Origin: Eledone cirrhosa
Taxonomy: Eukaryota
Assembly (NCBI GenBank): GCA_964016885.1
Contig: OZ024758.1
Coordinates: 3,906,001-3,970,000 of the forward strand
DNA: 64,000 nt
Direction: 5' to 3'
Shown piece after piece: positions 3,642 through 62,269 of the stretch. A model generated the notes under the pieces. That model saw only the letters and a program-made list of their open reading frames with translations, was not told the origin of the DNA and did not search any database. Every line of letters starts with the position of its first letter. The first letter of the stretch is position 1. Made by a program: the position numbers and the translations under genes.

Positions 3642-3686
3642 TAGGTATTCGGTCTGTTACAGAAACATATGTCAATACCTAATAAA
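3642..3686 (+). ncRNA. Degenerate hammerhead ribozyme relic
   Basis: Helix I TAGGTATT/AATACCTA (8 bp), GAAA-CATATG-TC, then AATAAA; the CUGANGA box is missing. Lies between (TA)n tracts. Confidence 0.5.
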
Positions 3687-4167
3687 TTCCTTTTTTAACA
3701 AAAGCACTTTCATTTTATATTCATCCTTTCTATATATATATATATATATATATATATATATACTTGGGAGGGTCATATTTGTGTAATAATATGGCCAGAA
3801 TTAAAAACAGAACACACTCACTGTTTGGTTAGTTTTCGCTTCTGTGTCTTTTATATCGGTTAATTTAATTTATTCGGTCCTCAATGTTACCATTGACTGA
3901 CCAACGGTCAGAAATACAGATACAATATAGATACAAACACATATATATATATAGTCTAACAAAGTTCTTTCATTACACATCTGCAACATCGTCAGTTGTG
4001 CTATTATGTTTCCTCCTGCTGTATTGTATGCATACGCCATCTTTATTTAGTCTGTTTATTTATTATTTATTTTTTTTGTCTTCTCTGCACATGCGTTTGC
4101 ATGTGTGTATATTTGTTTCGACACATGCTTTCATATCAAAAACCTCGCAAAACTAATTCATCGCCGT

Positions 4168-4273
4168 TATATATATATATATATATATATATATATATAT
4201 ATATATATATATATATATATATATATATATATATATATATATATATATATATATATATGTGTGTGTGTGTGTG
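4168..4273. repeat. (TA)n plus (TG)n microsatellite
   Basis: Directly visible. Confidence 0.97.
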
Positions 4274-4338
4274 TCAAATATTTTCGAAGAAAAAGCAAAG
4301 GAAAAAAGAGTGTTCTATGTATATAACAGAGCTGTTTA

Positions 4339-4533
4339 ATTAGAAATGGAACAACACAATATATAACTATTCCATTACCAAAGGTTTCAGGACCCCAGAC
4401 AATATTAATATACGTCTAGATCGCTCATCAGACAGATGAACGAGCTAGACGTATATTAATAATGTTTAATTGTCTAGGGTCCTGAAAACTGTGGTAATGG
4501 AGTAGTTATATATTGTCGTGTTCACTTTCTAAT
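4339..4533. mobile_element. Fold-back element with hammerhead-like motif (minus strand 4371-4436)
   Basis: Imperfect inverted arms centred near 4432. Minus strand reads CTGATGA-GCGATCTAGAC..GTCTGGGGTCCT-GAAA-CCTTTGG-TA-ATGGA. Confidence 0.6.
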
Positions 4534-4551
4534 GTATGTATATATATATAT

Positions 4552-4695
4552 ATGGTTTCTACAGGACAAGAACTGTTTCTTTCGAAGGAAATCATCAGGA
4601 TGAAACAGTTCTAGTCCTGTAGAAGCCATTTCTATATCAAATATTTTTTTACTCTGCTAGGTATTGTGTACCTTATCGACGATTAAACTCGGGAT
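4552..4695 (+). mobile_element. (TA)n-embedded fold-back element, family B
   Basis: Arms ATGGTTTCTACAGGAC../..GTCCTGTAGAAGCCAT plus a tail. Minus strand reads CTGATGA-TTTCCTTCGAAA-GAAA. Homologous to 48980-49160 and 56565-56645. Confidence 0.75.
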
Positions 4696-58433: not shown

Positions 58434-58497
58434 TAAACATTATATATATTTCAATGGCCAAGTTCCGTAAGATCCTGGGAACATCATCAGATATTTA
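58434..58497 (-). ncRNA. Type I hammerhead ribozyme motif (family D)
   Basis: TAAATAT-CTGATGA-irregular helix II (GTTCC/GGAAC)-GAAA-TATATA-TA-ATGTTTA; 7-bp helix I. Confidence 0.65.
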
Positions 58498-59047
58498 TTG
58501 CATATATATATATATATATATGTAAGTATGCATGTATACGTACATACATATATGTATACAGACGTACAGTAGCATGCACATATATATATATATATACATA
58601 TATACATACATATGCATACAGGTACACATACATATATGCACGTATCAGTTTAGCGGCGCTTATTATAACGTCGCTTTGTTCGTTTGTAAACAAACTGAAC
58701 AGCCTGAATTTATGCCATACGGTGTTAAGGCAACCACGTCACCTTTTTGTTCAACACTGATATATGTATGTACGTATACATGCATACTTACATTTAAGTA
58801 AGTGCCATACTAAGAGTGAGAAATGAAATTTCGTTTTCATTTTGTTTCAATTTATATATATATATATATATACACACACATTTGAGTACAGCATTAACGA
58901 AGCTTTAGTTTGCGGCTAAGCTAACGAATGCAAATTCGGCATGTAGCTTTAGCACTCGAATGGGAATAATACCCCAGAGTAACAGAGTAATAACAATACG
59001 TTTAGACAGCATTACCACAGCAACGAGAATGGTTGGACTCAGGAAAA

Positions 59048-59134
59048 TGTGTGTGTGTGTGTGTGTGTGTGTGTGTGTGTGTGTGTGTGTGTGTGTGTGT
59101 GTGTGTGTGTGTGTGTGTGTGTGTGTGTGTGTGT
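59048..59134. repeat. (TG)n microsatellite
   Basis: Directly visible. Confidence 0.97.
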
Positions 59135-60565
59135 GATTTTGTTTTTAGAACTTCACATTGTCGTTTCTTCATCTTTCTGTGTGTCTGCTACAGTATATCT
59201 TCTAGCCTTTCTCTCATAATATCTAGATATTTCAGCGATCCATTACTGTCACTTTGTCAGAATATGATACGATCTACAGGTTCACTAATGTTGCTCTACA
59301 ATGAATTACCCTTGTGGAGTGCGATACACTGCGTTCAGTCCTGTAGTAAGAGGTTCATCCATGCGTATTTTTCTGTTGTCGACCTCTCTGGATATTCAAT
59401 TATGGTTCTGGTTGTTGTGAACTTTACGAATAAGTCGAACTAGTTGGAAACACCACAGTATGTCTAGTAATATAGTAAGAAGGAAAAGTAATGGTGTGTG
59501 GTATTTCGTACGAATTCGGGAAGGACATATCAAGTATTCTGTTTATTTATTGTTAATGTTTTATTTCATCACTGTAGGTAAATTAAGGAATAAGAACTAA
59601 GGTGTTGATGTTTATGAAGTGTAATGTGTGAATAATATACAGACTAGGTTAGATAAACATGTTTCCAGGTTAACAAATGGTCTATTTCATATTCTTACCT
59701 GATTTCTGTGTTGGACGGCTGACATTTCACTTTACTTAATTCACTAATGACTTAAACATAAGTATATTCTTCACAAGAGTTCATTTTCATACTGTCTCAT
59801 ACCTCACCCTCCCCTATCGCCCCCTCTCTTCCCCCCTCTCTCTCTCTGTATATATATATATATGAATATATATATATATATATGTCTGTGTGTGTGTGTG
59901 TGTATATACAAATATAAATGATACGTATATACATACACATATATATATATATGTATACAAATAAATATGATACATACACACACAAACACACACACACACG
60001 CACATATATATATACATACATACACATACATACATACATACATACACGCGCATGGATGTTTTTTCTATTTATTTTCATTCATTCTTGTCACAAAATGTAT
60101 TCATCCATGAAGTTTAAAATGAGATATATATATATACATTGATATTTGAATTTAAAATCAGGGTGACAAACCCCTCTATGGCGCCAAGAGACTACATACC
60201 GCCCGGAGAGTATTTTCATGCCAACTGTACTGATAAAATAGCTAACATAACAAAAATATCGACCAATTAATGCCTGTGGTTCGATCCCTTTATTCAATAA
60301 ATTCAATTTTCTCCGATTTCATGTAACTACTATGAAAGCAATAATTTTTTAAAGTGATCCCTCTATGTTCGGAATTAGTATATATATATATATATATATA
60401 TATATATATATATATATATTTATATATATATATATGTGTGTATATATATTTTTACAGTTATTTATATAATTTTCAATGTATGTTTACGATCTATGACATT
60501 GTGATTGAAAGGTGAATTATCGTGGTAACATGAGTAATATCAGAAAAAACCTTATGTGATTAGAA

Positions 60566-60870
60566 ATAATTGTTTCTACTTTTGGCACAAGGCCAGCAAT
60601 TACCCAGTGCATTACTGGTACTTTATTTTATCGACTTCGTAAGGATGAAAGGCAAAGTAAACCTCGGTTTCTTATATAGGCACAAGGGCAGCAATTTGGA
60701 GGAGGGAAAAGTCGATTGAATCGACCCCAGTGCGTGACATGTATTTTATTTTATCGACCCCGTAAGGATGAAAGGCAAAGTTAACCTTGGCATGATATGA
60801 ACTCAGATCATAAAGGGCCGTAACTCTATGCTGCAAAACATGGCGTCCGACGCTCAACCGATACTGCTAA
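60566..60870 (-). mobile_element. Two tandem SINE family 1 copies
   Basis: Short-form 3' half followed by a long-form copy. Confidence 0.88.
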
Positions 60871-62214
60871 TTGAATCACATTTAGGGAGATCTTTTTTTA
60901 TGTTAATATCTAAAAATTGTTTCTTCATAATTCTTACTTCTACACAAATAAGTTTGTGTAGTTAAGAATTACGAGTTGAAATTTATTGAAATTACTAGAT
61001 TCTCGGCTCCACTTCACGGCAGCTTATTAGACCGAAATGTTATTGAATCTCATGAGAGGGACAGTCCCTTCTCTGTAAGGAGTTAATATCACACTATTTG
61101 AAAAGTTCATGTTTGTGGTAAAGTTTACAGTTGCAAGTATTTAAGGTCGGTGTTTGTTCCTGAGGATCGCGTCCTTCAATGTTCTGTTCCTTCCGCCCAG
61201 TTATGAGTGAGGCCCTGCAAAATTCTATGGCTAGTGCATATGACCCGACCTCCTCAGTCTGAGTCAGCCCTTTGGAGACTGTACATAACCACATATTTTT
61301 GCTTTTCATTATATTTTTCTAAACATATTATATGACTTTTAAATATCGGCACTAATGCGTGAGACTCTTGAACATTGTGCTATTTCTAAAGTTATTATTC
61401 ACAATAACCCATGACCATATATGTATATATGATATATTTATATAATAATATGGGGGTGGTGTTTACATATAGCAGGCACACATACATATAGATACATAAG
61501 TATAAACATATATATGTGAGCGGTGTCTGACCTGTAATATACATAAGTATATATATATATATATATATATATATATATATATATACTTATGTATATGTGT
61601 GTATATATAAGTATATGTATACATATAGAAGATATACAGACATAAGTATAATCATGTATGTAAGTGATGTTTAACATGTAATATATATATATATATATAT
61701 ATATATATATAGTCTGAATAACTTTATAGAAGCTATTGTATATATATGTGTACCATTTCATAAGACGTACATCCGGTATATTTATTTGATCTTCGGTGCA
61801 ACAGAAATTAAATTAAATAAAAATGGGAACCACTGGTCTAGGATATTTAGAACAGACATTGAGAAAGTTAATGTAGAACTTTCCAACATATTCATTCTAT
61901 TCTCCCCTTCCTTCCACTATACGATTCCATTTCAAGTAATATTATTTATGTGTATCGCTCTTTGACAAACACAACCTATTTACACATCGGAACAACTTAT
62001 TGATGTTAATAATCATCAAACAAATATTGTTGAAGTATATATATATATATATATATATACATATAGATCTTGAGTATATGTTGGTTGTATACCAACACCT
62101 CAGTATGCAGGCTGGAGCACTCGACGAGGTGCGCAGGTTGGTTTCGTTACTCCGGAGTAATGTAAAATAAAGTAAAATAAAAAGTCAAATGTTTAAAATT
62201 TAGCTTCGTTTATT

Positions 62215-62269
62215 ACTGCTATATATATTTCGGTGACAGCCATCTTTGGCTGTGACCTCTTCAGGCAGT
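62215..62269 (-). ncRNA. Complete type I hammerhead ribozyme motif
   Basis: ACTGC-CTGAAGA-GGTCACAGCCA-AAGA-TGGCTGTCACC-GAAA-TATATA-TA-GCAGT-AATAAA. All core nucleotides present, 5-bp helix I, helix II pairing at 10 of 11 positions. Confidence 0.82.

Follow-up and report, generated by a model that had tools for sequence, protein, structure and literature searches.

What are the recurrent strings of GAAA, a self-complementary hexamer and TH (H being A, C or T) that are scattered through a 64-kb stretch of the Eledone cirrhosa genome? The stretch, hereafter the window, comprises 64,000 nucleotides (nt) of the forward strand of contig OZ024758.1 (GenBank assembly GCA_964016885.1, positions 3,906,001 to 3,970,000), and the coordinates below are those of the window, each with its strand. 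A first-pass annotation had read the strings as a hammerhead ribozyme variant suited to dimerisation, and all eight that it named (3662 +, 6156 +, 48034 +, 55245 -, 58452 -, 62231 -, 57829 + and GAAA-CATG-TT at 24036/24040) are present where it placed them. It was also right in assigning the signature to hammerheads, of which it comprises the GAAA box, helix III and the cleavage site. Our analysis makes it probable that the strings form the 3' half of hammerheads of type I carried by likely Penelope-like retroelements in (TA)n, ~45-160 nt from the 3' end of the element, with a self-complementary helix III that is predicted to pair two copies into a double hammerhead cutting after UH. The anatomy of the motif, its excess over shuffled and mirrored sequence, its fixed 3' place in many families and the retention of the palindrome through double changes were observed directly. 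Genome-wide, the observation goes beyond chance; for the window it had been overstated, as the named sites include one chance match and two that are related to each other, and the majority are broken copies.

The window was scanned on both strands for GAAA, a hexamer (N6) identical to its own reverse complement and T[ACT]. The controls were 300 dinucleotide-preserving shuffles and a mirrored sequence, reversed without complementing, in which repeats and composition are preserved. Thirteen palindromic matches were found against 3.0 +/- 1.8 in the shuffles, and 0/300 shuffles reached 13. With TATATA and ATATAT left out, 10 matches stood against 2.5 in the shuffles, and other 4-mers put in place of GAAA under the same exclusion gave 0-6 matches. 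Eight of the 13 belong to hammerhead-derived families and five are background, the latter being about the chance expectation of 3.0.

The genome sample consisted of 100 random 10-kb stretches (1 Mb) of the window's own 3.0-Gb genome. In this sample, 106 of 2781 GAAA-N6-TH sites were palindromic. Ten shuffles gave 31.7 +/- 6.2 such sites (maximum 40), and the mirror gave 39 of 2602. The palindromic share was 3.8% after GAAA vs 0.8-2.4% after control 4-mers. Palindromes of 8 nt were also enriched (49 vs 11.8), those of 4 nt were slightly enriched (118 vs 90), and those of 2 nt showed no enrichment in the sample. One satellite array supplies 17 of the 106 matches, so that 89 remain without it; the array (L246:1-10000) has a period of ~520 bp and carries GAAA-GATATC-TC in each unit, with no hammerhead core. 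The first-pass annotation had proposed a genome-wide count of such sites downstream of CTGANGA against shuffled controls, and the count bears it out: CTGANGA lies at most 130 nt upstream of 28/106 palindromic and 133/2675 non-palindromic sites, and upstream of 0-1 sites in each of 5 shuffles.

Whole hammerheads were sought with descriptors. The strict descriptor required CTGANGA, helix I of at least 4 bp, helix II of at least 3 bp, GAAA and A-Nk-U-H, where k is the number of nucleotides inserted in helix III between A and U (A-Nk-U). It returned 64 motifs in the sampled 1 Mb, whereas each of 5 shuffles held 0-1 and the mirror none. A first descriptor used on the window found 2 motifs only, as it required the base of helix II to be paired; later scans were relaxed. 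After de-duplication, the relaxed descriptor yielded 77 motifs per sampled 1 Mb vs 1-4 in controls, with a CTGA core in 72/77, and these were grouped into 35 sequence clusters. Hammerhead density is therefore 64-77 per Mb in the random megabase, and ~10^5 genome-wide by extrapolation rather than by count.

Self-complementarity of helix III and the predicted dimer

The 6-nt insert that had been presented as a variant is the commonest form here (43/77 motifs), and comprises 27 Watson-Crick palindromes, 13 palindromes with G-U pairs and 3 inserts that are not palindromic. Inserts with k=4 are palindromic in 12/12 motifs, those with k=8 include 8 Watson-Crick and 2 G-U palindromes and one that is neither (n=11), and the single k=2 insert is palindromic. 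Within one molecule, A-N6-U amounts to an A-U pair, one further pair and a 4-nt loop. The chance that the inner two pairs also match is ~7% (Watson-Crick) to 15% (with G-U), by hand arithmetic from base composition. Nineteen of the 35 clusters have k=6, and since 13 of these hexamers are Watson-Crick and 4 are G-U palindromes (2 are not), the covariation is real; ten different Watson-Crick hexamers are represented. Almost all families thus extend self-complementarity to the inner four letters, which is left unexplained by a monomer hairpin, as this needs the outer pairs only.

Window sites were followed to copies elsewhere in the genome, and these copies and the sampled stretches are labelled as loci (L numbers). 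As the first-pass annotation had claimed, the palindrome is retained while its sequence changes, both between families and between sister families. A double change that keeps the palindrome separates CAATTG from CAGCTG (83% identity over 165 aligned columns), TGATCA from TATATA (77%) and CAATTG from CATATG (70%). The elements at 6156 and 58452 had been taken to be unrelated and are diverged relatives, with 77% identity over 161 aligned columns. Two further pairs were not counted as evidence, namely family a with locus L307 (alignment 0.64 vs 0.65 for the best letter-shuffled control) and family i with the TATATA family (0.61 vs 0.65). The G-U palindromes TATGTA, CATGTG, TGATCG and CATTAGTG (15 motifs) are self-complementary as RNA only, which argues against a role at the DNA level. 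Comparison at the family level thus confirms that the whole of helix III, including the loop, is kept self-complementary, as expected if two copies pair.

Two families with a hexamer are represented in the window by intact hammerheads. Family h (62215..62269, -) is an intact type I hammerhead with helix I ACTGC/GCAGT, the core CTGAAGA, a helix II of 3 bp, C.C and 6 bp, GAAA at 62231, TATATA and TA, followed by AATAAA. The identical motif occurs in 28/30 loci, with the pattern unmatched in 2, and the copies are 99-100% identical. Family i (38622..38692, +), which was absent from the first-pass list, is likewise intact and of type I, with a helix I of 8 bp (TATTTTAT/ATAAAATA), CTGACGA, a long helix II, GAAA at 38673, TGCGCA and TA, and TGCGCA is kept in 42/44 copies across 30 loci. 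A hammerhead with a 4-nt palindromic loop, the reference case of the first-pass annotation, lies at 24011..24049 (+) and reads CTGATGA-A-GGGT AATG ACCC-A-GAAA-CATG-TT. Its helix I is 4 bp in the window copy and 6 bp (ACAGTC/GATTGT) in most copies, and CTGATGA..GAAA CATG TT was found in 27/30 loci of this CATG family.

Two copies each of families h, i and b and of the CATG family were cofolded. For families h and i, the minimum-energy structure was a double hammerhead in which helix II formed within each molecule, A-N6-U paired between the molecules as an 8-bp helix III, and helix I spanned the two strands. The difference in free energy relative to two monomers (ddG) was -7.2 kcal/mol for family h and -13.3 kcal/mol for family i, and the monomer fold of family h left helix III unpaired. 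In the CATG family cofold, only the central helix formed. The 8-bp intermolecular A-N6-U helix suggested by the first-pass annotation is therefore predicted for two of the three hexamer families, the dimer of the third (family b) being different. Two copies would pair, either as tandem copies on one read-through transcript or as two transcripts. A15.1-N6-U16.1 would become the 8-bp intermolecular helix III, helix I would form across two strands, and the resulting double hammerhead would self-cleave after UH. Dimerisation and cleavage are thus both predictions.

Variant and decayed families and their carriers

The boxes CUGANGA...GAAA...UH stand in this order at 62264 (-), 38630 (+) and 24015 (+) in the window, and also in family copies of 6156, 49414 and 58452; the order is missing from the window copies at 6156, 23099, 48034, 55245 and 57829. 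The reading of the named hexamer sites as hammerheads held within the window for 62231 (-), where CTGANGA and helices I and II are present, and the other named hexamer sites are without this combination there. Family copies restore what the window copies miss, i.e. a full hammerhead in family b, the 49414 family and the 23099 family, and CGCGCG in family f. Several window copies are most likely truncated or decayed relics that do nothing in place.

Family a is present as the 3' part of a 5'-truncated copy (3565..3730, +) that reads CTGAAGA-A, an 88-nt helix II, and A-GAAA(3662)-CATATG-TC. Helix II is closed by GTGACA/TGTTAC, AATAAA follows, and the element ends at ~3730 in (TA)n. This is the youngest family seen, 40 of 41 scored genome matches being 100% identical. 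A possible relative (L307) has helix I TTATT/AATAA and helix III CACGTG; comparison of family a with L307:348 shows 7 extra bases (AATACCT) between the cut site and AATAAA.

The family b copy at 6137..6218 (+) keeps GAAA(6156)-TGATCA-TA-GTAT-AATAAA without the hammerhead 5' half; it has no CTGATGA and no 5' strand of helix I, and is joined to an inverted piece of its own element. Full copies read ATAC CTGATGA T(ATCACCGG..CCGGTCAT)T GAAA TGATCA TA GTAT, with the core in 21/30 loci and TGATCA in 27/30. In a set of copies (L031-L041, L043 and L051; 85-95% identical to the window copy; window 6090-6136 +), the hammerhead 5' half is replaced by an inverted upstream piece near helix II with slightly variable junctions, and the set is either an old rearranged subfamily or the outcome of recurrent snap-back. 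A second copy of family b (5956..5986, -) has GAAA-TGACCA-TA, one base off the palindrome. The decayed relative at 58437..58494 (-) reads ATAT CTGATGA ... GAAA(58452) TATATA TA ATGT and has a weak helix II; its helix I is compensated, from ATAC/GTAT in family b to ATAT/ATGT. A simple GGTCA-TTGAAA-TGAYC hairpin was considered for family b and dropped, as family copies carry hammerhead cores upstream.

Family e (55230..55317, -) is a non-autonomous element of ~160 nt, in which helix I is GTGT/ACAC and helix II is long; GAAA(55245)-CAATTG-TA and AATAAA follow, and the element ends in (TA)n. It has 1895 first-look candidates genome-wide, and its copies (L062-L091) are 97-98% identical. CCGTCGA occupies the core position in 29/30 loci and CAATTG is found in 29/30, both being present in 28/30. 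A relative in the random sample (L282) has the canonical CTGAGGA together with CATATG. Family f is represented by a decayed copy (57784..57843, +) with the core AGGACGA and GAAA(57829)-CGTGCG-TC-ACC. The CGTGCG string, which had been described as near-palindromic, is present, and the family majority is the full palindrome CGCGCG, one CpG transition away. That majority reads GGT CCGACGA (GCCATTGATTA..TGATCAATAGC) GAAA CGCGCG TC ACC, its helix I being GGT/ACC and its helix II spanning 11 positions; CGCGCG occurs in 16/29 matched loci, the others being mostly one CpG transition off, and CCGACGA in 9/16 matched loci. A CTGATCA in this family, considered as a core, is actually the 3' strand of helix II.

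Two further families were absent from the named sites or had lost their core. A decayed copy not listed by the first-pass annotation (49321..49430, +) has the core CTGAGCA and GAAA(49414)-TAATTA-TA-ATGAA; in its family, ATCAT CTGAGGA was found in 8/12 loci and GAAA TAATTA TA in 10/12. An old family at 23080..23099 (-) has lost the core in the window copy, which keeps GAAA(23099)-CGATCG-TA. Other copies of this family read CATTGTTT CCGAAGA ... GAAA CGATCG TA AAACAATG, with CGATCG in 12/12 loci and CCGAAGA in 5/12. Family j has the CCGAAGA core in 3/3 sampled copies (L220, L252 and L264).

CCGANGA, with C at position 4, is the majority core of three high-copy families (f, the 23099 family and j), which are predicted hammerheads and have good helices throughout, helix I measuring 3-8 bp and helix III being palindromic. 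Families with variant or crippled cores (family a, with no helix I; family e, with CCGUCGA; and the three with CCGANGA) rank among the most abundant, yet keep the palindrome and the other helices. In many families, helix II is set off from the core by a mismatched pair (A.A, U.U or A.G), which gives CUGANGA-N-stem-N-GAAA; examples are 24015 and 3572 in the window, the family b copies L044-L060, and L244:2926. For the sites without CUGANGA, two other designs were considered and rejected. A permuted (type II) hammerhead with a downstream core was not found in the downstream sequence examined, and ordinary cores lie upstream in family copies. Another ribozyme class, prompted by a likeness of AGAAACA to loop B of the hairpin ribozyme, was dropped, as family copies carry ordinary hammerhead cores.

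Copies of the carriers are truncated to varying extents at the 5' end and stop in (TA)n at the 3' end, some are inverted head to head or arranged in partial tandems, and the hammerhead cut site lies ~45-160 nt from the element 3' end. This architecture matches that described for Penelope-like elements in passages of PMC8557442. An open reading frame (ORF) upstream of family a contains a GIY-YIG-like motif preceded by a Cys-rich linker, and the Atlas clusters nearest to a neighbouring longer ORF carry GIY-YIG. Based upon the insertion architecture and a sub-threshold GIY-YIG match, the carriers are likely Penelope-like.

AATAAA occurs at most 25 nt past the cut site in 30/77 hammerhead motifs of the sample. 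It was also found at most 25 nt downstream of 23/106 GAAA-N6-TH sites with a palindromic hexamer vs 97/2675 non-palindromic sites. It often overlaps the 3' strand of helix I or begins where that strand ends, and in the window it follows the cut in the regions of 3683, 6172, 55221, 57852 and 62210. As AAUAAA after the cut site, it may serve as the element's polyadenylation signal.

Known systems and alternative readings

A double hammerhead was reportedly described by Forster and colleagues in 1988 for newt satellite 2 and avocado sunblotch viroid, in which helix III of the monomer is said to be too weak and two copies share an extended helix III. Those sequences belong to a satellite or a viroid, whereas the hammerheads here lie in the 3' region of a retroelement.

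The statements that follow refer to passages of the papers cited. Metazoan type I hammerheads have been described with a helix III of 1-2 bp capped by a palindromic loop of 2-4 nt (Cervera and de la Pena 2014, PMC4209133), a form that the first-pass annotation had treated as a variant. Minimal forms in Penelope-like terminal repeats are also described there, as are an extra nucleotide by helix II, a long helix II, a short helix I and a probable action as dimers (PMC4209133). The hammerheads of E. cirrhosa share with those published the type I topology, the terminal place in a retroelement, the long helix II, the short helix I, the extra nucleotide by helix II, the palindromic positions 15.2-16.2 and loop 3, the many diverse families per genome and the proposed dimer action. 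They differ in that many motifs have a 6- or 8-nt insert instead of none or 4 nt, several families have an unpaired or mismatched nucleotide on both sides of helix II (U.U, A.A, A.G), and AATAAA often follows helix I. A review states the dimer model for Penelope-like elements, citing Lunse et al. 2017 (PMC6765202). In the axolotl HHR_Amex2, helix III is a 2-bp stem with a tetraloop, a U.U mismatch lies at the base of helix II, and dimeric constructs cleave better (de la Pena et al. 2020, PMC7229834). The A-N6-U form of helix III and the U.U mismatch recur here; the two tetraloops are likened by stem and loop size, the passages of PMC7229834 not stating whether the Amex2 loop is palindromic. 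Unlike our motifs, which lie mostly in dispersed retroelement 3' regions in (TA)n, HHR_Amex2 and the retrozymes belong to tandem repeats that measure 170-400 bp and are expressed in the form of circular RNAs. A 2-bp helix III with a palindromic tetraloop working in dimers is already published (PMC4209133, PMC7229834). What we describe is no new kind of ribozyme, both its design and the dimer idea being in print.

Naiad elements with 'HHR_core' or 'HHR_half_core' (Craig et al. 2021, PMC8557442) resemble the carriers in their (TA)n target preference, in tandem and inverted insertions and in having boxes off the descriptor, as in families a and e. Set against Naiad, the GIY-YIG-like motif in the one neighbouring full-length-like copy examined here is at the C-terminal end of the ORF, 3' of two overlapping upstream ORF fragments, and none of these matched a reverse-transcriptase family. 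Unlike Naiad, most of the families here have canonical hammerheads. Among natural core variants, U4C and U10.1-U11.1 have been reported as tolerated, U4C being weakened but biologically tolerated in a viroid (Perreault et al. 2011, PMC3088659). Of these types are the CCGANGA cores of family f, family j and the 23099 family, as well as the U.U with which helix II of family b begins; the variants are rare in PMC3088659, whereas most copies of several high-copy families here have C4. Natural occurrence of U.U at 10.1-11.1 is documented (PMC3088659, PMC7229834), and A.A is not mentioned in those passages. The particular families described here were not found in the literature searched, in which PMC8557442 alone surfaced for cephalopod hammerheads and the text of a 2026 preprint on animal retrozymes contains neither 'palindrom' nor 'helix III'.

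Several results weigh against the reading of the strings as parts of hammerheads that work in dimers. Within the window, 2 of the 13 hexamer matches are intact hammerheads (62231 - and 38673 +). The cofold minimum of family b is not a double hammerhead. The active consensus is not kept by three abundant families: family a is without helix I (only 1 bp) despite its canonical core, family f has CCGACGA, and family e has the non-canonical CCGTCGA, which is unlikely to cut by canonical rules because core positions 4 and 6 are off consensus. As to a Penelope-like origin of the carriers, the GIY-YIG match to Pfam PF01541 (E 0.0017, 19 bits) is below the curated cut-off of 22.6, and no reverse-transcriptase family was detected by Pfam in three ORF fragments of a neighbouring element. 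An Rfam scan of the window gave no hammerhead match at gathering score, and the Rfam hammerhead models gave no match at E<=10 in 61900-62400 despite the intact family h motif there. In the E-value scan, no hammerhead was among the best 150 of 320 weak matches. These best 150 (e.g. 35766-35845, 4804-4874) are almost all microRNA precursor models on (TA)n or (TG)n microsatellite hairpins, and were set aside as low-complexity artefacts. The silence of Rfam is a limit of its models for this sub-type and not evidence against the fold; that curated models miss these motifs entirely matters for annotation.

One alternative is that the motifs act as monomer hammerheads, with helix III a small hairpin (2-3 bp and a loop) and the self-complementarity of the loop a by-product, and we hold this to be improbable. 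Efficient self-cleavage alone is reported in passages of PMC7229834 for the hammerheads of most invertebrate retrozymes, and a helix III of 2 bp and a tetraloop is there called 'more stable'; dimers may thus not be required for a 2-bp helix III. Inserts with k=7 (5/77), which look like plain hairpins with paired arms round one unpaired central base, and with k=10 (4/77), which are hairpins with loops that are not self-complementary, are not full palindromes, and in the single k=3 motif the outer bases are unpaired. The loop of a monomer, however, needs no self-complementarity, yet 40/43 inserts with k=6, 12/12 with k=4 and 10/11 with k=8 have it through the centre. Sister families keep the palindrome through double changes at two central positions, and the monomer fold of family h forms no helix III. 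A small probability, of the same order, attaches to the idea that the GAAA-N6-UH module serves Penelope-like retrotransposition mainly as a signal for RNA-RNA pairing that joins two templates, with self-cleavage secondary, dispensable or lost. The young or high-copy families a (no helix I) and e (CCGTCGA) keep the palindrome, helix II and the GAAA and UH boxes, and template pairing would explain the frequent tandem and head-to-head double insertions. However, young copies have had no time to decay, so that their retention of these parts says nothing on selection, and the change between family e and its canonical relative may have run either way. Most clusters are canonical, with CTGA in 72/77 motifs.

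Far less credible is that the signature is a chance or composition effect of an AT-rich, microsatellite-rich genome. The mirrored window gives 6 matches vs 10 in the real one, which makes the excess within 64 kb modest. In addition, 5 of the 13 window matches (9306, 33523, 42432, 48034 and 57143) are background, near the 3.0 expected, and 17/106 sample matches come from one satellite array. Chance is opposed by the sample counts (106 vs 31.7 +/- 6.2 shuffled and 39 mirrored; 64 vs 0-1 and 0 with the full descriptor) and by the control 4-mers (0.8-2.4% palindromic vs 3.8% for GAAA), and the excess holds in 1 Mb of random genome. We give equally little credence to an action of the palindromes at the DNA level, e.g. 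as targets of the endonuclease that the element encodes or as hot spots of recombination. All of them are 6-bp DNA palindromes and inverted junctions are common in these elements, but the G-U palindromes (15 motifs) are self-complementary only as RNA, the palindrome always lies between GAAA and UH in hammerhead register, and sequences vary between families, so that no single protein site is conserved.

Background matches and a MITE-like element

The five background matches differ in their setting. GAAA-CAGCTG-TC at 48034..48045 (+) had been listed among the hammerheads; it is single-copy in the genome, has no CUGANGA in the 60 nt upstream and gave no match in core-anchored scans of the whole window, and was reassigned to background. 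GAAA-TATATA-TA at 9306..9317 (+) lies at the edge of a (TA)n microsatellite. The matches at 42432 (+) and 57143 (-) were assigned from their local context in the window and are counted among the five. The remaining match, at 33523 (+), is inside a long inverted-repeat element resembling a miniature inverted-repeat transposable element (MITE), which has arms GCCGTTTCGAC...GTCGAAACGGC, adjoins (TA)n and is not a hammerhead. This element is also the source of the GAAACGGCCG strings at 24486 (-) and 16938 (-), which had been counted with the signature and are followed by AA or GG instead of UH. Its places in the window are 6530-6700, 11180-11370, 15750-15960, 16938, 24486 and 33440-33600.

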